Assembly (NCBI GenBank): GCA_964384055.1
Contig: CAYLIV010000045.1
Coordinates: forward strand, 1-29,138
Length of the DNA: 29,138 nucleotides
Reading direction: 5' to 3'
From: an uncultured Fibrobacteraceae bacterium
GTDB taxonomy: Bacteria; Krumholzibacteriota; Krumholzibacteriia; LZORAL124-64-63
Made by a program: the position numbers and the translations under genes
Notes under the pieces: model-generated
Seen by the model: only the letters and a program-made list of their open reading frames with translations
Databases searched by the model: none
Told to the model about the DNA's origin: nothing
Shown: piece by piece, positions 1 through 12,535 of the stretch
How the letters are laid out: every line of letters begins with the position of its first letter
Numbering within the stretch: the first letter of the stretch is position 1

Positions 1-212
1 AGGGGCTACCATCTTTGGCACCTTCTTCACAAACATGTGGAGGAGGTGCTTTCTTTTTGCAGTAGGGGATGCATTGACCTGTTCCCATCCCGAATCAAAC
101 AACGCCGGGCGGTGTGAAGGGGAAAGCCTGCGTGAGTTGAAATCTGGTCCAGTCGGAAGTTGGTGAATCTGTCAGGTTGAACCAGGATCTCCTTCTTCAC
201 CAACACGGCAAC

Positions 213-1895
213 TCAGGAACGAGACGGCCCGGATTGATCCTCTGGAATGTTATCAAAGTTTCTGAGTACCCGCTCGATGATTGTATCCGCCGCTGCAGCT
301 TCTGCGGCGACAACATGGGTGGCGCCAGCTTTCTCCAGGCGCTTCACATCGGTTTCGTAGGTGGTTCGCACGGTGATCCGCAGATCGGGTGCCGCAAGTC
401 GCGCGGCTCCAGTTACCCGAGCCGTTGCGTCCGGATCGTTGATAGCGACCACGAGTTCGCTGGCATCGGCAACCCCGAGATGCTCGAGCACCTCTGCGCT
501 CGTAACGTCTCCGAAGCAAGCCGGCTCTCCCCGCCGAGCCGCCTCCCGAACATTCTCGCTGTTGAGATCGACGATAATGTACCGCGCACCTATCTGTGTG
601 AGAGAGCGGGCCAGACCCCTGCCCGTCAAGCCATACCCGGCGATGATGACGTGGTCCCTCAATGACTCGGATTTCTGTATCTCCGCTATGGTTTGCACCT
701 GGAGCAGACGCGTCAAGTGGTTGAGCTTTCCCAATCCAGCCGCCAGGTGGGGCCCCAGCGCGAGCCCAAATGGCGTGGCCAGCATCGAAAGGATGATTGC
801 CACAGTGAGATTGCCCCGAAGAGGTTCTTCCAGCAGGCCTGTTCCGCTCGCCGCTAGAAGGAGGACAAAGGCGAACTCTCCGACCTGGGACAAAGAAGTG
901 GCGGTTAGGATTCCCACACGCGCCGGAAGCCTCATGATGGAAGCGGCAAGGAAAATGATGATGAACTTACCAACGATGATGGCGCCGAATAGTCCGAGAA
1001 TGGGGAGCAGGTTATCGAGCACGTTCCCGAGATCGAGCAGCATGCCGATAGAGACGAAGAACACACTGGCGAGAACATCGCGCAACGGGACAAGATCGGA
1101 GATCGCCTGCTCGCGATACCGGCTACCGGAAACGACCAAGCCGGCGAGAAACGCGCCGAGGGCCAGCGAGACGCCCGCGGTTGATACCACCCAGGCGGTC
1201 CCGAGGCAGATCAGAAAGACGGAAAGTACGAAGAGATCGCGCTCCCGCGTGCGTGCAATTGCTTCGAGAAAACGAGGCACGACCAATCGCGACGCCACCA
1301 GTACGCCAGTGATCACTGCTGCAGCCTTCAGTAGCAGGACCAGCACGCTCGTACCAGCGCTGGCGGTGTCACAAAGGACAGGAATGAGTAGGACCATCGG
1401 TACGACACAGAGGTCCTGAAAGATCAGAATGCCAAGTGCCAGCCGACCGTGCGGCGTCTCGAGTTCTCCCCGGGTCGACAGGCCCCTCAGGACAATGGCA
1501 GTGCTCGATACGGCGATAATGAAACCCAGCAACAGTCCCGATCGAATGTCTCGCCCGAACAGATCATTGAGCCATAACACGATCAGGATAGTGGTGCCTA
1601 CCTGGACGGCGCCTCCTACGGCGATCGGTCTCCAGAGCCGGCGGACCCGGTTCAAGGAGAGCTCGAGTCCAATGCCGAAGAGGAGCAGCACAACGCCAAG
1701 TTCGGCGAGAGTTTCGACCTGGTGGATATCCTGAACAAGTCCCAGCGCGTTGGGCCCGATAACTGTTCCGGCGACGATGAACCCCGCGATAGACGGCACT
1801 CCCAAGCGGCGTAGAAACGCAACTACGGCAACAGCTGCCGCGAGAATTATAACCAGGTCCAAGAGGAAGACTAGCTCAGTCACAGCCGTTCCCAT
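213..1895 (-). CDS. Monovalent cation:proton antiporter-2 (CPA2) family, KefB/KefC-like, with C-terminal RCK/TrkA-N NAD-binding domain (copy 1)
   Basis: The 560-aa ORF starts at an ATG. About twelve hydrophobic helices show the Na+/H+-exchanger pattern (GPNALGLV, LLFGIGLE). They are followed by a Rossmann motif, IIAGYGLTGRGLARSL…IVDLN, typical of RCK domains. Confidence 0.85.
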   Translation of the reverse strand: MGTAVTELVFLLDLVIILAAAVAVVAFLRRLGVPSIAGFIVAGTVIGPNALGLVQDIHQVETLAELGVVLLLFGIGLELSLNRVRRLWRPIAVGGAVQVGTTILIVLWLNDLFGRDIRSGLLLGFIIAVSSTAIVLRGLSTRGELETPHGRLALGILIFQDLCVVPMVLLIPVLCDTASAGTSVLVLLLKAAAVITGVLVASRLVVPRFLEAIARTRERDLFVLSVFLICLGTAWVVSTAGVSLALGAFLAGLVVSGSRYREQAISDLVPLRDVLASVFFVSIGMLLDLGNVLDNLLPILGLFGAIIVGKFIIIFLAASIMRLPARVGILTATSLSQVGEFAFVLLLAASGTGLLEEPLRGNLTVAIILSMLATPFGLALGPHLAAGLGKLNHLTRLLQVQTIAEIQKSESLRDHVIIAGYGLTGRGLARSLTQIGARYIIVDLNSENVREAARRGEPACFGDVTSAEVLEHLGVADASELVVAINDPDATARVTGAARLAAPDLRITVRTTYETDVKRLEKAGATHVVAAEAAAADTIIERVLRNFDNIPEDQSGPSRS

Positions 1896-2269
1896 CCGAT
1901 AAACCCCGGAGTTTTACCAAGCGGAATTCAGCCAGTTTGTTGAATCCGCCGCCGCCGACCTTAACATCGCAGAACGGCCCGGTATACAGATTATAGCCAG
2001 TCAAAACCGGCTGACCACAGAGTACTTATCCTCTGAGCTGGCACAACTTTCATTACTCCAGATTAACAGGGCCAGGCCGCGAGCATGTGTGAAAGATCTT
2101 CGATTCTTGCCTGCTCCCACTTCATGGCGTCTGCTGACTACCATCTCGAATGCCTCCCTCACCGATGGTTGGGGGAGGCAATTCTGTGTGCGAAGCGAAC
2201 CGATCAGCACTCATGGCCGATCTGGCATGGTCGCGTCGAGGAAAGGCACCCTCCCGGCGCGAAGCCAGG

Positions 2270-2965
2270 TCAAGGTGACGATCCCGGCGAACCGACAGGA
2301 ATCACGAACCGCAAGACACAGAAAAAATGTAGAGTTGTGCCTGCCAGCACGAACAGATGCCAGACGGCGTGATGGTAAGGGAATCCACGCCAGATGTAGA
2401 AGATAGCGCCGGCACTGTAAGCCGCGCCACCCATTCCCAGCCAGATCAGAGCCTGCATCGGGAGTGCCGCGGCAAGTGGTCGAAAGGCGATGGCCACGAG
2501 CCAGCCGAGGGCGAGGTAGAAAACGAGGGACAACCTTTTCCAGGGACGGCGCCAGACGACCTCGTAGACTATTCCCAGGGCCGCCAGCCCCCATCCCAGG
2601 CCGATGAGGGTCCAACCCCAGCCACCGCCCAGCACGATCAGGGCGAACGGCGTGTAGGTGCCGGCGATGAGCAGGTAGATGGCGCCATAATCCAGCAACT
2701 CGAAGACGAACTTGGCGCGGGCCGCGGTGAGGGCGTGATAGAGGGTCGAGGCAGCGTACAGGGTCAGTATGGACCCGCCGAAAATGGTGACGCCCACCAC
2801 GGTCTGCGCATCGCCTGACGCCGCAGCACGCCAAACAAGAATCACCAGGCCCACCGCGCCACCGAGTGTTCCGAGGCCGTGGGTGATCGCATGGGCGATC
2901 TCCTCGCCGCGTGAGAAACGATCATGCTCAAAGGTGCCACGCAACGGGACTCTCTCCTGATCCAT
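2270..2965 (-). CDS. Hemolysin-III / PAQR (YqfA) family membrane protein (copy 1)
   Basis: The 231-aa ORF starts at an ATG and has seven predicted TM helices. Family motifs are present: EEIAHAITHGLG, TLYHA, LLDYGAIYLLIAGTYTPF and YHHAVWHLFV. Confidence 0.85.
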   Translation of the reverse strand: MDQERVPLRGTFEHDRFSRGEEIAHAITHGLGTLGGAVGLVILVWRAAASGDAQTVVGVTIFGGSILTLYAASTLYHALTAARAKFVFELLDYGAIYLLIAGTYTPFALIVLGGGWGWTLIGLGWGLAALGIVYEVVWRRPWKRLSLVFYLALGWLVAIAFRPLAAALPMQALIWLGMGGAAYSAGAIFYIWRGFPYHHAVWHLFVLAGTTLHFFCVLRFVIPVGSPGSSP

Positions 2966-3012
2966 GGTGACAGGGCCGGTTGGCTCTGGGGCCGCCCCAG
3001 TGCAGGTCTAGC

Positions 3013-3048
3013 AGAAAAAAGCCCCGATCTCCAGAGAAGACCGGGGCC
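3013..3048 (-). terminator. Intrinsic terminator downstream of the RRM gene (copy 1)
   Basis: A 6-bp GC stem (gccccg/cggggc) with a 15-nt loop is followed on the minus strand by U6 (plus-strand A6 at 3015..3020). A second small hairpin, gcgcc-ttccg-ggcgc, lies at 3071..3085. Confidence 0.5.
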
Positions 3049-3098
3049 GTGAGGAAAATCGGGATTCACCGCGCCTTCCGGGCGCCGTGATCAGGTGC

Positions 3099-3368
3099 TT
3101 ACCACCTCGAGCCGCCGCGAGGCTCACGCGGGCGCGCCTCGTTGACGTTGAGAGCTCGACCGTCGACTTCCCGGCCATTGATCGCCTGGATGGCCTGCAT
3201 GGCTTCGTTGTCGTTCTCCATCTCCACGAATCCGAATCCCCGCGAGCGGCCGGAATCGCGATCGGTGACGACCGTGGCGCTGTTGACGGCGCCATGCTCT
3301 GCAAACAGGGAATTGAGGTCGGGGTCGGACGTGTCGAAGCTGAGGTTGCCCACATAGATCTTCTTCAA
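3099..3368 (-). CDS. RRM-type (RNP-1/RNP-2) RNA-binding protein with Arg/Gly tail (copy 1); TTG start
   Basis: The 89-aa ORF carries RNP-2 (KIYVGNLSF) and RNP-1 (RGFGFVEM). The start codon is TTG, since the plus strand reads caa at 3366..3368. A Shine-Dalgarno AGGAAG lies 7 nt upstream. The only alternative start is an internal GTG. Confidence 0.8.
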   Translation of the reverse strand: MKKIYVGNLSFDTSDPDLNSLFAEHGAVNSATVVTDRDSGRSRGFGFVEMENDNEAMQAIQAINGREVDGRALNVNEARPREPRGGSRW

Positions 3369-3437
3369 GACTGCACTTCCTTCGGAACTCGGAATCCGCC
3401 GTCATTAACAGATATCGGTTCAACTCGACGGATCTAC

Positions 3438-3462
3438 AAAAAAAGCCGGCAGGGTTGCCGAC
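3438..3462 (-). terminator. Terminator-like hairpin plus U7 inside the RRM upstream leader (copy 1); candidate attenuator or 3' end of an upstream small RNA
   Basis: Minus strand: gucggca-accc-ugccggc followed by uuuuuuu (plus-strand A7 at 3438..3444). The stem is better on the minus strand (G·U) than on the plus strand (C/A mismatch). It lies about 75 nt upstream of the RRM TTG start. Confidence 0.45.
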
Positions 3463-3976
3463 CGGGCGCAATATAGGTGGATTCGGGGGAAACACAAGGT
3501 ATTTCTCCGATCATCGGTTCCCTGCCAATGGTCCCGGTACCGGATGCACCTCGCTGTCTGATCACTGTTATAGTACTACGGCGAGTGCCCCGGCTCGCGG
3601 CCTCGGGAGTGCTCCAGCCGCGGTCTGGGAGGTGGCAGCCCAGGATTCAAATCTTGTGGCTCGAGAGGTGCGGCGGAGGATCGTCCAGACAGGAGTATAT
3701 CAATTCCGGGACGGAAAACCACTTCCGACGGAGCACTCCGGGAGAGGTTCGCATACTGTCCCATACGGGCTACCATCTTTGGCACCTTCTTCACAAACAT
3801 GTGGAGGAGGTGCTTTCTTTTTGCAGTAGGGGATGCATTGACCTGTTCCCATCCCGAATCAAACAACGCCGGGCGGTGTGAAGGGGAAAGCCTGCGTGAG
3901 TTGAAATCTGGTCCAGTCGGAAGTTGGTGAATCTGTCAGGTTGAACCAGGATCTCCTTCTTCACCAACACGGCAAC

Positions 3977-5659
3977 TCAGGAACGAGACGGCCCGGATTG
4001 ATCCTCTGGAATGTTATCAAAGTTTCTGAGTACCCGCTCGATGATTGTATCCGCCGCTGCAGCTTCTGCGGCGACAACATGGGTGGCGCCAGCTTTCTCC
4101 AGGCGCTTCACATCGGTTTCGTAGGTGGTTCGCACGGTGATCCGCAGATCGGGTGCCGCAAGTCGCGCGGCTCCAGTTACCCGAGCCGTTGCGTCCGGAT
4201 CGTTGATAGCGACCACGAGTTCGCTGGCATCGGCAACCCCGAGATGCTCGAGCACCTCTGCGCTCGTAACGTCTCCGAAGCAAGCCGGCTCTCCCCGCCG
4301 AGCCGCCTCCCGAACATTCTCGCTGTTGAGATCGACGATAATGTACCGCGCACCTATCTGTGTGAGAGAGCGGGCCAGACCCCTGCCCGTCAAGCCATAC
4401 CCGGCGATGATGACGTGGTCCCTCAATGACTCGGATTTCTGTATCTCCGCTATGGTTTGCACCTGGAGCAGACGCGTCAAGTGGTTGAGCTTTCCCAATC
4501 CAGCCGCCAGGTGGGGCCCCAGCGCGAGCCCAAATGGCGTGGCCAGCATCGAAAGGATGATTGCCACAGTGAGATTGCCCCGAAGAGGTTCTTCCAGCAG
4601 GCCTGTTCCGCTCGCCGCTAGAAGGAGGACAAAGGCGAACTCTCCGACCTGGGACAAAGAAGTGGCGGTTAGGATTCCCACACGCGCCGGAAGCCTCATG
4701 ATGGAAGCGGCAAGGAAAATGATGATGAACTTACCAACGATGATGGCGCCGAATAGTCCGAGAATGGGGAGCAGGTTATCGAGCACGTTCCCGAGATCGA
4801 GCAGCATGCCGATAGAGACGAAGAACACACTGGCGAGAACATCGCGCAACGGGACAAGATCGGAGATCGCCTGCTCGCGATACCGGCTACCGGAAACGAC
4901 CAAGCCGGCGAGAAACGCGCCGAGGGCCAGCGAGACGCCCGCGGTTGATACCACCCAGGCGGTCCCGAGGCAGATCAGAAAGACGGAAAGTACGAAGAGA
5001 TCGCGCTCCCGCGTGCGTGCAATTGCTTCGAGAAAACGAGGCACGACCAATCGCGACGCCACCAGTACGCCAGTGATCACTGCTGCAGCCTTCAGTAGCA
5101 GGACCAGCACGCTCGTACCAGCGCTGGCGGTGTCACAAAGGACAGGAATGAGTAGGACCATCGGTACGACACAGAGGTCCTGAAAGATCAGAATGCCAAG
5201 TGCCAGCCGACCGTGCGGCGTCTCGAGTTCTCCCCGGGTCGACAGGCCCCTCAGGACAATGGCAGTGCTCGATACGGCGATAATGAAACCCAGCAACAGT
5301 CCCGATCGAATGTCTCGCCCGAACAGATCATTGAGCCATAACACGATCAGGATAGTGGTGCCTACCTGGACGGCGCCTCCTACGGCGATCGGTCTCCAGA
5401 GCCGGCGGACCCGGTTCAAGGAGAGCTCGAGTCCAATGCCGAAGAGGAGCAGCACAACGCCAAGTTCGGCGAGAGTTTCGACCTGGTGGATATCCTGAAC
5501 AAGTCCCAGCGCGTTGGGCCCGATAACTGTTCCGGCGACGATGAACCCCGCGATAGACGGCACTCCCAAGCGGCGTAGAAACGCAACTACGGCAACAGCT
5601 GCCGCGAGAATTATAACCAGGTCCAAGAGGAAGACTAGCTCAGTCACAGCCGTTCCCAT
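3977..5659 (-). CDS. KefB/KefC-like CPA2 antiporter with RCK domain (copy 2, identical translation)
   Basis: Identical 560-aa translation, offset +3,764. Confidence 0.85.
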   Translation of the reverse strand: MGTAVTELVFLLDLVIILAAAVAVVAFLRRLGVPSIAGFIVAGTVIGPNALGLVQDIHQVETLAELGVVLLLFGIGLELSLNRVRRLWRPIAVGGAVQVGTTILIVLWLNDLFGRDIRSGLLLGFIIAVSSTAIVLRGLSTRGELETPHGRLALGILIFQDLCVVPMVLLIPVLCDTASAGTSVLVLLLKAAAVITGVLVASRLVVPRFLEAIARTRERDLFVLSVFLICLGTAWVVSTAGVSLALGAFLAGLVVSGSRYREQAISDLVPLRDVLASVFFVSIGMLLDLGNVLDNLLPILGLFGAIIVGKFIIIFLAASIMRLPARVGILTATSLSQVGEFAFVLLLAASGTGLLEEPLRGNLTVAIILSMLATPFGLALGPHLAAGLGKLNHLTRLLQVQTIAEIQKSESLRDHVIIAGYGLTGRGLARSLTQIGARYIIVDLNSENVREAARRGEPACFGDVTSAEVLEHLGVADASELVVAINDPDATARVTGAARLAAPDLRITVRTTYETDVKRLEKAGATHVVAAEAAAADTIIERVLRNFDNIPEDQSGPSRS

Positions 5660-6033
5660 CCGATAAACCCCGGAGTTTTACCAAGCGGAATTCAGCCAGT
5701 TTGTTGAATCCGCCGCCGCCGACCTTAACATCGCAGAACGGCCCGGTATACAGATTATAGCCAGTCAAAACCGGCTGACCACAGAGTACTTATCCTCTGA
5801 GCTGGCACAACTTTCATTACTCCAGATTAACAGGGCCAGGCCGCGAGCATGTGTGAAAGATCTTCGATTCTTGCCTGCTCCCACTTCATGGCGTCTGCTG
5901 ACTACCATCTCGAATGCCTCCCTCACCGATGGTTGGGGGAGGCAATTCTGTGTGCGAAGCGAACCGATCAGCACTCATGGCCGATCTGGCATGGTCGCGT
6001 CGAGGAAAGGCACCCTCCCGGCGCGAAGCCAGG

Positions 6034-6729
6034 TCAAGGTGACGATCCCGGCGAACCGACAGGAATCACGAACCGCAAGACACAGAAAAAATGTAGAGTT
6101 GTGCCTGCCAGCACGAACAGATGCCAGACGGCGTGATGGTAAGGGAATCCACGCCAGATGTAGAAGATAGCGCCGGCACTGTAAGCCGCGCCACCCATTC
6201 CCAGCCAGATCAGAGCCTGCATCGGGAGTGCCGCGGCAAGTGGTCGAAAGGCGATGGCCACGAGCCAGCCGAGGGCGAGGTAGAAAACGAGGGACAACCT
6301 TTTCCAGGGACGGCGCCAGACGACCTCGTAGACTATTCCCAGGGCCGCCAGCCCCCATCCCAGGCCGATGAGGGTCCAACCCCAGCCACCGCCCAGCACG
6401 ATCAGGGCGAACGGCGTGTAGGTGCCGGCGATGAGCAGGTAGATGGCGCCATAATCCAGCAACTCGAAGACGAACTTGGCGCGGGCCGCGGTGAGGGCGT
6501 GATAGAGGGTCGAGGCAGCGTACAGGGTCAGTATGGACCCGCCGAAAATGGTGACGCCCACCACGGTCTGCGCATCGCCTGACGCCGCAGCACGCCAAAC
6601 AAGAATCACCAGGCCCACCGCGCCACCGAGTGTTCCGAGGCCGTGGGTGATCGCATGGGCGATCTCCTCGCCGCGTGAGAAACGATCATGCTCAAAGGTG
6701 CCACGCAACGGGACTCTCTCCTGATCCAT
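6034..6729 (-). CDS. Hemolysin-III / PAQR family membrane protein (copy 2)
   Basis: Identical 231-aa translation, offset +3,764. Confidence 0.85.
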   Translation of the reverse strand: MDQERVPLRGTFEHDRFSRGEEIAHAITHGLGTLGGAVGLVILVWRAAASGDAQTVVGVTIFGGSILTLYAASTLYHALTAARAKFVFELLDYGAIYLLIAGTYTPFALIVLGGGWGWTLIGLGWGLAALGIVYEVVWRRPWKRLSLVFYLALGWLVAIAFRPLAAALPMQALIWLGMGGAAYSAGAIFYIWRGFPYHHAVWHLFVLAGTTLHFFCVLRFVIPVGSPGSSP

Positions 6730-6776
6730 GGTGACAGGGCCGGTTGGCTCTGGGGCCGCCCCAGTGCAGGTCTAGC

Positions 6777-6812
6777 AGAAAAAAGCCCCGATCTCCAGAG
6801 AAGACCGGGGCC
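6777..6812 (-). terminator. Intrinsic terminator downstream of RRM gene (copy 2)
   Basis: Same sequence as 3013..3048. Confidence 0.5.
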
Positions 6813-6862
6813 GTGAGGAAAATCGGGATTCACCGCGCCTTCCGGGCGCCGTGATCAGGTGC

Positions 6863-7132
6863 TTACCACCTCGAGCCGCCGCGAGGCTCACGCGGGCGCG
6901 CCTCGTTGACGTTGAGAGCTCGACCGTCGACTTCCCGGCCATTGATCGCCTGGATGGCCTGCATGGCTTCGTTGTCGTTCTCCATCTCCACGAATCCGAA
7001 TCCCCGCGAGCGGCCGGAATCGCGATCGGTGACGACCGTGGCGCTGTTGACGGCGCCATGCTCTGCAAACAGGGAATTGAGGTCGGGGTCGGACGTGTCG
7101 AAGCTGAGGTTGCCCACATAGATCTTCTTCAA
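6863..7132 (-). CDS. RRM-type RNA-binding protein (copy 2); TTG start
   Basis: Identical 89-aa translation, offset +3,764. This copy keeps the native upstream region, which continues into unique sequence at 7540. Confidence 0.8.
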   Translation of the reverse strand: MKKIYVGNLSFDTSDPDLNSLFAEHGAVNSATVVTDRDSGRSRGFGFVEMENDNEAMQAIQAINGREVDGRALNVNEARPREPRGGSRW

Positions 7133-7201
7133 GACTGCACTTCCTTCGGAACTCGGAATCCGCCGTCATTAACAGATATCGGTTCAACTCGACGGATCTA
7201 C

Positions 7202-7226
7202 AAAAAAAGCCGGCAGGGTTGCCGAC
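7202..7226 (-). terminator. Terminator-like hairpin plus U7 in RRM leader (copy 2)
   Basis: Same sequence as 3438..3462. Confidence 0.45.
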
Positions 7227-7712
7227 CGGGCGCAATATAGGTGGATTCGGGGGAAACACAAGGTATTTCTCCGATCATCGGTTCCCTGCCAATGGTCCCG
7301 GTACCGGATGCACCTCGCTGTCTGATCACTGTTATAGTACTACGGCGAGTGCCCCGGCTCGCGGCCTCGGGAGTGCTCCAGCCGCGGTCTGGGAGGTGGC
7401 AGCCCAGGATTCAAATCTTGTGGCTCGAGAGGTGCGGCGGAGGATCGTCCAGACAGGAGTATATCAATTCCGGGACGGAAAACCACTTCCGACGGAGCAC
7501 TCCGGGAGAGGTTCGCATACTGTCCCATACGGGCTACCAGTTTCCTGAGTACGGCTTCCCCCAGCGGAGGGAGGCCGTCTCTGTTTCAAGACAGAAATCA
7601 CCGCAGCCACAACCGACTCTTGCGCACCGGGCCGATTTGTCTATTCTTCCCTCGATCGGAATCATCCAGATGGCCGCTGCCGGCCACGCTCCAATCTCGG
7701 AAAGGCAACGCC

Positions 7713-8424: not shown

Positions 8425-9474
8425 ATGCCCACAGCAATGAACGGCACCACACGTATCGTCCTGATCTTCGTGGACGGCTTTGGCTGGGGCGCGCCGGATC
8501 GGCAAACGAATCCGTGTCTGGATTACGGCGGCAGTCTTCTGCGGGTGCCGGACGCGGAGACATCGGCGACGATACCGGCAGCCCAGGACGGTGACCCACG
8601 CCGCCTGCCCGGCAGCGGCGCCTGGGCCCGACCCATCGACGCGATCCTCGGTGTCGACGGCCTGCCTCAGAGCGCGACCGGACAGACGTCGTTGCTGACC
8701 GGCGTCAACGCCCAGGCGGTGCTGGGCAAACACCTCACCGGCTTCCCCAACGAAACCTTGCGGTCCATCCTGCTCGAGCACTCGGTGCTGCGTACCCTGC
8801 GGCGACGCGGCCGGCGCGTCGCGTTCATCAACGCCTTCCGGCCGCGGTTTTTCGACTTCCCGCGCGAGCGGCAACTGCTGTTCTCGGCGACGACGGTAGC
8901 CAACCTGGCCGCCGATTTACCTTTCTTCCGGCTCGAGGATATCGCCGCCGGCCGATCGATTTACCAGGAGTTCACCAACCGGTCGCTCCAGGAACGCGGC
9001 TTCGACGTGCCGACCTTCACGCCGGCCGAAGCGGGCGCCATCCTGGCGAAGCAGGCGCGCGAGTATGATTTCCTGCTGTACGAGTATTTCCAGACCGACC
9101 GCGCCGGCCACGCGCAGGATCGGCGGCGGGTCGCCGGGGAAATGCTCAAGCTCGACGAGTTTGTCGGACGCCTGCTGGCCGACCTCGGCTTGCGGGGAGC
9201 GGACGCGAACGAGCGCCGGCACGGTGGCGACGACGATGCGCCCCGTAGCCACAGTAGCGAGGACGAGCACCGACGGGGGCCCGAGGCGGCTCCCGATGAC
9301 CCGCAATACCTGGTCCTGTTGACCAGCGATCACGGCAATCTCGAGGACGTTTCGACCAAGCGGCACACCCGCAATCCCGTGCCGCTCTTCGCCTGGGGCG
9401 ACGGCGCGCAGGAGTTCGTGGCGGCAACCACTGGACTGACCGACGTGACACGTAATATCCTGCAGAAGTTCTGA
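8425..9474 (+). CDS. Alkaline-phosphatase-superfamily metalloenzyme (cofactor-independent phosphoglycerate mutase / ApgM / phosphopentomutase-like, PF01676-type)
   Basis: 349 aa. The N-terminal RIVLIFVDGFGWG resembles iPGM VLVILDGYGY. It also has LVLLTSDHGN and a C-terminal NPVPLFAWG. The start could be the ATG at 8425 or the one at 8437. Confidence 0.6.
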   Translation: MPTAMNGTTRIVLIFVDGFGWGAPDRQTNPCLDYGGSLLRVPDAETSATIPAAQDGDPRRLPGSGAWARPIDAILGVDGLPQSATGQTSLLTGVNAQAVLGKHLTGFPNETLRSILLEHSVLRTLRRRGRRVAFINAFRPRFFDFPRERQLLFSATTVANLAADLPFFRLEDIAAGRSIYQEFTNRSLQERGFDVPTFTPAEAGAILAKQAREYDFLLYEYFQTDRAGHAQDRRRVAGEMLKLDEFVGRLLADLGLRGADANERRHGGDDDAPRSHSSEDEHRRGPEAAPDDPQYLVLLTSDHGNLEDVSTKRHTRNPVPLFAWGDGAQEFVAATTGLTDVTRNILQKF

Positions 9475-9648: not shown

Positions 9649-10683
9649 ATGAATATTTCGCGCGGCAATCTCGTGTCCACCGTTGTCGGCGTCGCCCTGT
9701 TGCTCGTCGGCGTCATCGTGACCGTCCTGTTCACGACCGACTCCGCCCAGGCCAAGGAAGTGACCAAGGATTTCGCAGAGACCTTCGACGTGCGGCCGGG
9801 CATGACCCTGAAACTCGACCACGGCGACGGTGACGTGTCGATCGAGCCGGCGGACAACGACGTGCTCGACATCACCGTCCGCTATCGCGTCGAACACGCC
9901 CGCATCGGCGTGGGGGACAAGGCCAATCTCGACGTGAAATTTGATCGCGACGACGATGTCATCCGGGTCGTCGGCAAGGAGAAGGGCGGATTTGTCATCG
10001 GCTTCTCGCACTTCAAGCGCTACGAATATACCTATACCATCACCGCGCCACCGTATCTGATACTCGAGCTCCGGGGCGAGGACGGCGACGTCAGTATCAG
10101 GCGTTGGACGGGTAACATCGCCTGTACTCTCGACGACGGCGACGTCACGCTGCACGATATCGAGGCCGAGATGACGACCCTCGAACTGGAGGACGGCGAT
10201 CTGCAGATAGAAGGTTTACGCGGCGAACTCGACGTGCAGGCTGACGACGGCGATCTCGATCTCTTAGAACTCGTGGTGGACAACTGCAATATCGATCTGG
10301 CCGACGGGGAGATTCAGATCGATCGCAGCGAGGGCGTTTTCGATCTCGAGACCGAGGACGGCAACATCGAAATCCGCCGTACGCAGGCCACACGCCTCAC
10401 CGCACTCGCCGAGGACGGGGATATCGAACTCGACCTGGAAGGTGACGGGCCCATCGATCTGGACCTGGAGAGCGAAGATGGCGACATCGACGTCGATCTC
10501 GCCGCGAACCTGTCGGCCGACTTCAGTATCGAAACCAGCGATGGACGTATCCGCCTGCACTTGCCCGACGAGGCGGTCGACGTCGACCGTAAACGCCGTG
10601 CCTCAGGCCAGCTCGGCGACGGCGGCGGACGCATCCGCATCCAGACCGACGACGGCAACGTCACCCTACGCAGCGGCCGCTGA
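9649..10683 (+). CDS. DUF4097-family beta-strand-repeat protein (YvlB/LiaG-like putative adhesin); N-terminal TM anchor, Asp/Gly-rich repeats
   Basis: The ATG at 9649 follows AAGGAG. A TM helix, VVGVALLLVGVIVTVLF, is followed by at least 10 degenerate repeats of the form (E/D)DGD(V/I/L)x(I/L/V). Confidence 0.6.
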   Translation: MNISRGNLVSTVVGVALLLVGVIVTVLFTTDSAQAKEVTKDFAETFDVRPGMTLKLDHGDGDVSIEPADNDVLDITVRYRVEHARIGVGDKANLDVKFDRDDDVIRVVGKEKGGFVIGFSHFKRYEYTYTITAPPYLILELRGEDGDVSIRRWTGNIACTLDDGDVTLHDIEAEMTTLELEDGDLQIEGLRGELDVQADDGDLDLLELVVDNCNIDLADGEIQIDRSEGVFDLETEDGNIEIRRTQATRLTALAEDGDIELDLEGDGPIDLDLESEDGDIDVDLAANLSADFSIETSDGRIRLHLPDEAVDVDRKRRASGQLGDGGGRIRIQTDDGNVTLRSGR

Positions 10684-10700
10684 TCGTTCGGCTGCGGTGT

Positions 10701-10786
10701 CGCCGTTCTGAAACCGAAGCAGTCACCGCGCGGACTCGAGCCGAAGGCGAATGGAGCACGGTGACTGCTTCGGTTTCAGAACGGCG
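10701..10786. repeat. 28-bp perfect inverted repeat (arms 10701..10728 and 10759..10786) with a 30-nt spacer; it sits between convergent genes and is a putative bidirectional terminator or structured element
   Basis: CGCCGTTCTGAAACCGAAGCAGTCACCG and its exact reverse complement, read directly from the sequence. The spacer contains CTCGAG. Confidence 0.7.
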
Positions 10787-10804
10787 AGAAGCCAGCGAGA
10801 ACGT

Positions 10805-11698
10805 TCACGGCCGCAGCCCCTCGAGGTAGAACACCTCGAAGACCTTTTCGTGGAAGATCGGTCCGTGCCCGAAGTAGCCCTCCTCGCCGAACAGCTCTCC
10901 GTGGTCGGACATGATCATGAAGTAGGTATTCTTGGGGCAGCGTTCCATGAAGGTGCCCACGACCTTGTCCAGGTGCTCCACGCAAACGATCTGCTTCTCG
11001 TAGAAGGCCTTGAACTGCTCGGGAGTGAAGAACTCTTCTTCCTTGCGGTCCTCGATGAACTCGCCCGGATTCTTCAGGAATTCGTCGAGGGATTTGAACA
11101 CGCCGTGCACGCCGCTGATGTGGGGCAGGTCGTCGGCTTTCTCACCGGGCAGCAGGTAGGGATAGTGGGTTTCGCCGGTATTGATGAAGAAGAAACTCGG
11201 CTGGTCCTTCTTGAACTCGAGCTGATCGCAGATGGCCTGCAGGTCGTTGTGCGAGGGGGCCAGTTCGTACTTGTCGAAATGGGCCGAGAGGCTGGTCATG
11301 GGATTGAGTACGGGCAGGCTGACCCAGCCTTCGTTGTAGTAACCCTGGGCCTTGAGGAAGTGCGGCAGCGAGAGCTGCGGCACGAACTTGCTGAACTCCA
11401 CTTCCGGGATGTTCAGGCGCTCGGACCAGAGCGAGAACTCCTCGCGATACACGTTGGAGGCGAAAACGCCTTTCGGGCTCGTATGGGGGACCATTCCCAT
11501 CAGGAAGGTATAATGGCTCGGGCTGGTCCAGCTGGCGTAGCTGTAGCGCTGCTCGGCCGCACCGATCCGATCCAGATTGGGAGTATTGGCCTCCATGTAC
11601 GCGTCGTACCGGCAACTATCGAAAACGATGAACACGATGTTGTTCAGCGTGTCCCCACCGCCGAAAACCTTCTTCACGCCATCGAGAAATCCCGCCAT
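10805..11698 (-). CDS. Type-I phosphodiesterase / nucleotide pyrophosphatase (NPP)-like alkaline-phosphatase-superfamily protein, cytoplasmic
   Basis: 297 aa; the ATG follows AAGGA. FDSCRYDAY resembles the NPP FDGFRWDY motif. TSPSHYTFLMGMVPHTS resembles the TFPNHYSIVTGLYPESHG nucleophile region. MIMSDHGE is also present. The residues are rich in F/K/E/Y and GC looks lower than in neighbouring genes. Confidence 0.6.
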   Translation of the reverse strand: MAGFLDGVKKVFGGGDTLNNIVFIVFDSCRYDAYMEANTPNLDRIGAAEQRYSYASWTSPSHYTFLMGMVPHTSPKGVFASNVYREEFSLWSERLNIPEVEFSKFVPQLSLPHFLKAQGYYNEGWVSLPVLNPMTSLSAHFDKYELAPSHNDLQAICDQLEFKKDQPSFFFINTGETHYPYLLPGEKADDLPHISGVHGVFKSLDEFLKNPGEFIEDRKEEEFFTPEQFKAFYEKQIVCVEHLDKVVGTFMERCPKNTYFMIMSDHGELFGEEGYFGHGPIFHEKVFEVFYLEGLRP

Positions 11699-12222: not shown

Positions 12223-12442
12223 GGTTGATTCCTTTCGGATTTCGGACTGTTTGCAGTCTGTGCAATGGTAGCTGCAGACCGTGAACGCTGTTTTCGGAGA
12301 GCATCATGCAGCTCGCGTGCCCGATCGGGGCAATGAAGATAAATTTTCTCATGAATCAGTTAACGATTATCATTGCAATGTTTTAGGGGTATTAATTTTC
12401 AATCTAATCGTGTCCTGTGATGACACGACAAAGTCCGGGTGT

Positions 12443-12480
12443 TTGACGTTAGCGTTGCATGCAGCTATATTGTTGCAACA
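12443..12480 (+). promoter_or_regulatory. Near-consensus sigma-70 promoter (TTGACG, 17 bp, TATATT) with an overlapping 10-bp perfect palindrome TGTTGCAACA (12471..12480) and flanking TTGCATGC palindromes (12454..12461 and 12487..12494)
   Basis: An AT-rich island of about 150 bp (12340..12490) between divergent trxA and the sigma-54 activator gene. The hexamers and spacer were counted from the sequence. Three TTGCA-containing palindromes lie within 45 bp. Confidence 0.5.
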
Positions 12481-12535
12481 TAAGTGTTGCATGCTACGCC
12501 GGGGTCGTCTTCCGCGGTCATTGTGGTGGCTGACG

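Follow-up and report, generated by a model that had tools for sequence, protein, structure and literature searches.

The window, by which we mean the whole 29,138-nt stretch of DNA analyzed here, contains two convergent genes whose stop codons (10681–10683 on the plus strand and 10805–10807 on the minus strand) bound an intergenic gap of 121 bp. One gene encodes a DUF4097 protein and the other a metalloenzyme resembling sulfatases and type I phosphodiesterases; a long inverted repeat lies between them (Table 1). A first-pass annotation of this DNA had described a perfect inverted repeat with 28-bp arms and a 30-nt spacer in a gap of 121 bp. The coordinates bear out the spacer and the gap, and the perfect repeat is real, but its arms had been measured short: they match at 29/29 bp. 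None of 100 dinucleotide shuffles yielded two matches to the inverted-repeat pattern. The perfect stem begins symmetrically, 16–17 nt past each stop codon.

Table 1. The palindrome, its parts, and the two genes that converge on it (positions in the window).
Feature	Position	Strand	Evidence
DUF4097 ("toastrack") gene; 3' end enters the palindrome	9649..10683	+	Pfam PF13349, E 5e-39; gene calls
Imperfect outer left part of the quasi-palindrome; takes in the last codons of the DUF4097 gene and its TGA stop (10681-10683)	10669..10699		Folds, self-BLAST, anchored alignment
GCTGCGGT, left copy of the 7/8 imperfect direct repeat; site of the 76-bp deletions	10691..10698	+	Contig alleles
Left arm of the perfect 29-bp inverted repeat, TCGCCGTTCTGAAACCGAAGCAGTCACCG	10700..10728	+	Direct reading, repeat finder, pattern search
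Spacer/loop, CGCGGACTCGAGCCGAAGGCGAATGGAGCA, 30 nt; small internal GCC/GGC hairpin and XhoI palindrome	10729..10758		Reading and folds
Right arm of the perfect 29-bp inverted repeat	10759..10787	-	Direct reading, repeat finder, pattern search
GCTTCGGT, right copy of the direct repeat, within the right arm, 76 bp from the left copy	10767..10774	+	Contig alleles
Imperfect outer right part of the quasi-palindrome; takes in the stop (10805-10807, -) and last codons of the sulfatase-like gene	10788..10819		Folds, self-BLAST, anchored alignment
Convergent sulfatase / type I phosphodiesterase-like metalloenzyme gene	10805..11698	-	Pfam PF00884/PF01663; homologues; synteny

Folding calculations showed the hairpin to be extreme in either nucleic acid. 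As RNA, the region folds with an energy of -84.5 kcal/mol (z -9.0) on the plus strand and -84.8 kcal/mol (z -11.1) on the minus strand; as DNA, the corresponding value is -41.8 kcal/mol (z -10.4). No other 90-nt fold in the window is as strong (5.5 standard deviations under the mean), and no other perfect inverted repeat of at least 12 bp (loop of 3–100 nt) occurs in about 44 kb of the same genome. A weaker complementarity extends outward to and beyond both stop codons: the repeat finder reported 41-nt arms at 88%, and self-BLAST aligned 10673–10817 with its own reverse complement at 77%. In an anchored alignment, the outer 35 nt alone were complementary at a level modestly over background (p ~0.03). 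The perfect core is thus nested in a weaker, stop-to-stop quasi-palindrome (~10669–10819) whose outer-arm complementarity is weakly significant.

The sulfatase-like gene, which the first-pass annotation had judged to be of atypical composition, is no foreign acquisition: it is conserved and syntenic across relatives, and we rejected that notion. Its product shows ~80% amino-acid identity over thousands of homologues, the best-named of which come from Candidatus Krumholzibacteria metagenome-assembled genomes (71–83% identity), which makes that lineage the probable source of the window. A thioredoxin gene lies upstream of it in every relative fetched, and a sigma-54 activator gene is found further upstream in nearly all of them. 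The gene downstream, by comparison, varies: it is DUF4097 in the window and HNH, SpoIIE, Rrf2, CitMHS, a metalloenzyme, or a hypothetical gene in relatives (loci L007, L008, L010, L013, L014, and L015 and the P0002/P0003 contigs were compared with the window). Even the closest sulfatase homologues, those of P0002 (87%) and P0003 (83%), have different downstream neighbors, and none of the relatives compared provided an outgroup that shares the DUF4097/sulfatase junction. Because the gene downstream of the conserved block differs in almost every species, the palindrome sits at a synteny breakpoint.

Two other features of this gene neighborhood were recorded. Between the thioredoxin gene (minus strand) and the sigma-54 activator gene (plus strand) there is an AT-richer, divergent promoter region at 12440–12500. 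It holds a sigma-70-like TTGACG-17-TATATT at 12443–12471, overlapped by the repeats GTTGCATGC ... GTTGCAAC ... GTTGCATGC, which form a palindrome at 12452–12499; from their sequence, these repeats are a probable operator or activator-binding site. In addition, the sulfatase-like coding sequence carries within its last ~30 nt (…TTCGAGGTGTTCTACCTCGAGG…; window 10805–10845, minus strand) a hairpin of its own, of 9–11 bp, just before the stop codon. This small hairpin is present in most of the orthologues that were folded (L007–L015 positions), and it is speculation on our part that such an inverted repeat seeds template switching here.

Is a long hairpin a general property of this gene's 3' end? 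Among seven orthologous loci, three have an extreme hairpin right after the gene: the window (z -9.3), L007 (z -9.3), and L014 (z -6.8). At the remaining four, folding gave no significant 3' structure (z +2.0, +1.4, -1.1, and -0.9). The three hairpins have no sequence in common, and in each of the three genomes such hairpins are rare elsewhere. As to sequence, the element was unique in the parts of the genome searched and absent from the related loci, an outcome that the first-pass annotation had named as counting against its own reading; the position, however, is occupied by unrelated long hairpins in two other species. In L014, the structure (3904–3968) comprises a 23-bp perfect stem and a 19-nt loop. 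That of L007 (GCA_964343835.1; 4860–5021) directly follows the sulfatase-like orthologue and has arms of ~69 nt, of which 31 bp are perfect, around a 24-nt loop. The distal arm repeats, in inverted orientation, the final ~30 nt of the coding sequence, which specify the conserved C-terminus, together with the gene's 3' UTR. Because this arm copies the gene's own end, we conclude that the L007 hairpin is a local inverted duplication rather than a mobile element or a product of convergent selection. Selection, a position-specific mutational bias, or a fragility that itself gives rise to the synteny breakpoint could each account for the recurrence of long hairpins here in three species.

A different intergenic region of L014 contains a 16-bp hairpin (695–729) and, next to it, a perfect inverted repeat whose 27-bp arms enclose a 79-nt spacer (740–872). 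Some of these genomes may thus be rich in long palindromes that are each unique.

Through exact-protein look-up, the locus was found again in several independent assemblies of metagenomes (JGI, ENA, Logan), which allowed the palindrome to be compared among contigs. Those aligned to ~25 kb of the window (~3767–29138; L018–L025 and L003–L004) differ from it outside the palindrome by one SNP across all of them, at 8662. The contigs, which derive from different assemblies and sequencing runs, represent one near-clonal population that was sampled repeatedly. Within 10694–10774, by contrast with this background, there are an arm SNP, two 76-bp deletion alleles, and a contig end with a flipped loop. 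The full perfect palindrome is found in the window and in L022, and parts of it in L004 and L023. In L002/L021, an A->C change at 10718 in the left arm is the only difference from the window over 16.9 kb. The first deletion allele (L001/L016/L020, a 335-kb contig) has the junction GGCTGCGGTTTCAG and keeps a G; the second (L025, from a different sequencing run) has the junction GGCTTCGGTTTCAG and keeps a T. The reversed loop occurs at the end of contig L003, whose partner in the same assembly, L023, has the reference orientation.

Palindromes are known to stimulate deletion between short direct repeats by slipped mispairing. Both deletions join GCTGCGGT to GCTTCGGT, on either side of the single mismatch that distinguishes these two copies. 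Each leaves 17 nt of one arm in place and extends 5 nt past the end of the other. Because the two junctions retain different mismatch bases, a pattern that crossovers in two slipped-mispairing or annealing events give and that an insertion would not, the palindrome is ancestral and was lost on at least two occasions. An outer hairpin still forms in the deletion allele (-37.6 kcal/mol, z -2.9). In the mechanism that we propose, a hairpin or cruciform in the DNA would promote slipped mispairing between the two copies of the direct repeat; 76 bp, comprising the loop, an entire arm, and a portion of its partner, would thereby be removed, leaving the weaker outer hairpin behind. It should be borne in mind that a polymerase jumping over the hairpin during library PCR leaves the same junction signature as does a deletion in vivo. 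The 76-bp deletions are probably in-vivo alleles, to which in-vitro polymerase jumps or assembly-graph ambiguity could in part contribute. That four contigs (L003, L004, L023, and L024) end within the palindrome indicates that the structure also disrupts assembly.

These contigs also bear on the start of the window, where a 3764-bp segment (unit 3767–7530) occurs twice in tandem at 100% identity (copies 3–3775 and 3767–7539). The unit carries a Na+/H+ exchanger-TrkA_N gene, an HlyIII gene, and an RRM gene, and the window begins 2 nt before its first copy. Other assemblies (L020, L021, and L023) have one copy. The left bound of the unit is the 3' end of tRNA-Glu(CTC) (L020 4052–4127, ...GTCCCGTAGGGGCTACCA), and the right bound is a direct repeat resembling a tRNA 3' end (window ~7500–7539, GGTTCGCATACTGTCCCATACGGGCTACCA). 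The window itself contains no tRNA genes. L022 and L024 break at the unit boundary; upstream, L022 differs in sequence and terminates in the same att-like repeat. From its sequence, the duplication resembles an island that lacks an integrase, or a segment integrated in tandem, at a tRNA-Glu att site; alternatively, the assembly may have looped through a circular or tandem form.

Our preferred account of the palindrome, to which we assign a probability of roughly 0.5, is that it is a locally generated, non-mobile quasi-palindrome that was perfected by template switching, that forms a passive 3' hairpin on both mRNAs, and that is fragile as DNA. One portion of this account is held with considerably more confidence: the palindrome is quite probably non-mobile, of local origin, and structurally unstable in vivo or at least in vitro. 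With respect to origin, a perfect core with an imperfect periphery fits template switching, in which the nascent strand would copy the opposite arm during replication and so create or homogenize the inner stem. Template switching is reported to create and perfect inverted repeats (PMC8794818, PMC5941160) and to invert their spacers (PMC8604942). Neither the arms nor the loop had another match in the loci searched, and the distal arm at L007 copies the coding end of its gene. Template-switch quasi-palindromes as described in the Ripley model and in these three studies resemble the present case in several respects: a perfect core in imperfect flanks, an arm that is the reverse complement of local sequence (which at L007 includes the gene's 3' coding end), a possible spacer inversion, and hairpins that are single-copy and lineage-specific. 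The bacterial cases surveyed, however, are short inverted repeats; the window has a 29-bp stem and a 30-nt spacer, and its template-switch event is inferred. The variant alleles on record are derived deletions and one arm SNP of unassigned polarity.

With respect to fragility, interrupted palindromes are unstable in E. coli (PMC3315005). The interrupted long palindromes of that study and the one described here have in common recurrent deletion between short imperfect direct repeats (here 7/8 nt, 76 bp apart) in an invariant background; as in palindrome-stimulated deletion, one of the repeats lies outside and one inside an arm. The E. coli palindromes were engineered, whereas the variants of the window are natural metagenome alleles with a possible partial origin in vitro, and the involvement of SbcCD and replication is presumed for them.

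What would such a hairpin do in RNA? Transcripts from either gene would fold into the same very stable structure 16–17 nt after the stop codon. The role that we propose is a passive one: the structure would impede 3'->5' exonucleases and hinder transcription from running on into the opposing gene, as E. coli REP hairpins do. The latter serve as combined 3'-UTR terminators and stabilizers, also between convergent genes (bioRxiv 10.64898/2026.03.23.713779). We put an effect of the hairpin on RNA at an even chance or a little less. The roles of insulator, terminator, and RNase III target proposed in the first-pass annotation are plausible on the sequence. That annotation was also right that the stem is far longer than those of ordinary terminators: canonical ones in this very window have 8–13 bp stems, 3–4 nt loops, and T-runs (e.g., 6812–6784, 15185–15163, and 7227–7208, all on the minus strand). 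Reading both strands likewise confirmed its statement that no T-tract follows the stem, the next letters being GAAGCCAGCG on the plus strand and CACCGCAGCC on the minus strand. A terminator scan of the window called canonical sites elsewhere and did not call the hairpin. With its 30-nt loop and lacking a U-tract, the hairpin is expected to be a poor canonical intrinsic terminator. It shares with bidirectional intrinsic terminators a symmetric hairpin common to two convergent units, but those have short loops and A/U tracts on both sides; the present structure combines a 30-nt loop and a 29-bp stem with no A or T tract on either strand.

If the passive role is doubted, the palindrome might be a neutral mutational by-product of template switching, without function at any level and on its way to loss. 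This account shares the evidence for origin and instability with the preferred one, and it accords with a stem that is dispensable and absent from most orthologues. We nonetheless regard it as unlikely, on two grounds: a GC-rich 29-bp stem in two 3' UTRs folds and impedes exonucleases whether selected or not, and long hairpins would be unlikely to recur after this gene in three species if their position were random.

At the opposite pole, the hairpin might be a selected, factor-specific cis-regulatory RNA element, such as a site of retroregulation by RNase III or a bidirectional terminator, specific to the lineage, that dispenses with a U-tract. At 29 bp, a perfect stem of double-stranded RNA has sufficient length to serve as an RNase III substrate. 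The symmetrical start of the stem after each stop codon, the extreme hairpins that follow the orthologous gene in three of seven species (with unrelated sequences), and their rarity elsewhere in those genomes all speak in its favor. Strong selection for the stem is disfavored, however, because strains with the deletion exist, one of them assembled as a 335-kb contig, and because four of the seven orthologous loci lack significant structure. The organism, moreover, has ordinary U-tract terminators at its disposal. Rfam at gathering thresholds returned no family for the locus; relaxed searches gave plant and animal miRNA-precursor models over the hairpin core (28–37 bits vs. thresholds of 80–268), i.e., generic long-hairpin matches, and two sRNA models, far below threshold, over the wider region. 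We consider a selected element of this type somewhat less likely still than a functionless by-product.

An extension of this idea combines selection with instability: hairpins without U-tracts would be re-created recurrently by inverted duplication after this one sulfatase-like gene in various Krumholzibacteria, and would serve as a selected, lineage-specific 3'-end signal and a high-rate contingency locus toggled, in the species of the window, by recurrent 76-bp deletion. We view this combination as rather improbable. If it were true, the contingency locus would tune the expression of both convergent genes within a clonal population, through termination or RNase III processing.

The first-pass annotation had also raised a REP/MITE-like element or the scar of one. 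According to this explanation, a miniature mobile element (MITE, REP/BIME-like, or Correia-like) was inserted between the two genes. The size of 88 bp and the 29-bp terminal inverted repeats suit a MITE, presence and absence are polymorphic among strains, and the location is a synteny breakpoint at which the downstream gene differs between species. Copy number, however, argues to the contrary. The annotation had found no second copy of the arm in the window, and a pattern search with up to 3 mismatches agreed. Searches (blastn-short) with the arm, the loop, the 88-bp core, and a 152-bp region against all 25 fetched loci, which include ~19 kb of further flanking sequence of the same genome (L016, L018) and loci of seven related species, matched the same locus only. 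In public collections, a 20-mer of the arm with one degenerate position found two unpaired chance matches in genome_contigs and metagenome_contigs, L005 (in apparent coding sequence) and L006, and nothing in viral_contigs. These negatives are weak, as the scans missed JGI and ENA contigs known to be sources of the sequence, among them JGI contigs that carry the exact pattern (e.g., Ga0171656_1004672 and Ga0117908_1002982); the genome and metagenome collections scanned do not cover, or mask, the source of the window. Comparison of the element with plasmid and phage collections by blastn gave no match.

The structure of the locus is equally unfavorable to mobility. No target-site duplication was found: the flanks (...GCGGTG before and GAAGCC... 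after) share no direct repeat, and the only direct repeat nearby, GCTNCGGT, lies partly inside an arm. The "empty" alleles retain 17 nt of one arm and have lost 5 nt outside the other, which is not a precise excision, and the complementarity of the palindrome runs on into both coding sequences. Pfam searches identified no gene for a transposase, a RAYT/Y1 transposase, an integrase, or a recombinase within ~20 kb on each side. The element is thus like MITEs such as Correia, RUP, and Nezha in size (about 90–150 bp in those families) and in its long terminal inverted repeats (29/29), but it differs from them in that no target-site duplication flanks it, no family of copies appeared in the sequences searched, and the alleles without it are not precise empty sites. 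Likewise, it resembles REP/BIME sequences as an extragenic 3'-UTR palindrome without a canonical U-tract, located between convergent genes and variable in presence among strains. REP units, on the other hand, are ~35-nt imperfect palindromes with hundreds of copies and a link to RAYT; here, the element is single-copy in the ~44 kb searched, its arms are not self-complementary by reading, and no Y1 transposase gene is near. We therefore set aside the REP/MITE proposal, and consider a mobile origin very unlikely.

The flipped loop of L003 raises the prospect of an invertible DNA switch, in which the 30-bp spacer would flip between the 29-bp arms. Indeed, L003 reads from the sulfatase flank through an arm into the reversed loop, L023 of the same assembly has the reference orientation, and template switching is known to yield inverted spacers (PMC8604942). 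The reversal, however, is seen at a contig end only. Because its every k-mer of up to 29 nt also occurs in the reference orientation, so that a de Bruijn graph with k of 29 nt or less is ambiguous as to orientation, we judged it to be an assembly ambiguity; the flipped loop is probably an artefact of the assembly graph. The three assemblies that span the palindrome (the window, L021, and L022) share one orientation, the loop contains no promoter-like sequence, and the Pfam searches described above revealed no recombinase. A switch of this kind is highly improbable. Perfect dyad symmetry could suggest that a dimeric DNA-binding protein recognizes the element, either as a binding site or as a cruciform, but 29-bp arms 30 bp apart far exceed operator half-sites, the element lies between two 3' ends with no promoter, and neither a second site nor sequence conservation in relatives was found, making this the least credible of the explanations.

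Certain other element types were considered and rejected. An integron attC site would not fit: the stem is perfect and without bulges, no core-site consensus (RYYYAAC ... GTTRRRY) could be read in it, and no integrase gene is present within ~20 kb on each side. A CRISPR-like repeat was rejected since the repeat is inverted, not direct, and a protelomerase site and an operator were rejected on architecture (the 30-nt spacer, the perfect stem, and the location between two 3' ends).

The feature that emerges belongs to a familiar type: a probable template-switch quasi-palindrome, located in a convergent 3' UTR and subject to palindrome-stimulated deletion. It constitutes no new element or mechanism. 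On the practical side, such a palindrome breaks or confuses short-read assemblies. The L007 locus shows directly that inverted duplication of the 3' end of a gene can give rise to hairpins of this type, and it supports template switching, rather than stepwise compensatory change, as the process that builds long perfect stems in bacterial 3' UTRs. If the variation at the present locus exists in vivo, at least three independent events have occurred within 90 bp in an otherwise near-invariant population, and a natural long palindrome would be the dominant mutational hot spot in this uncultured bacterium.
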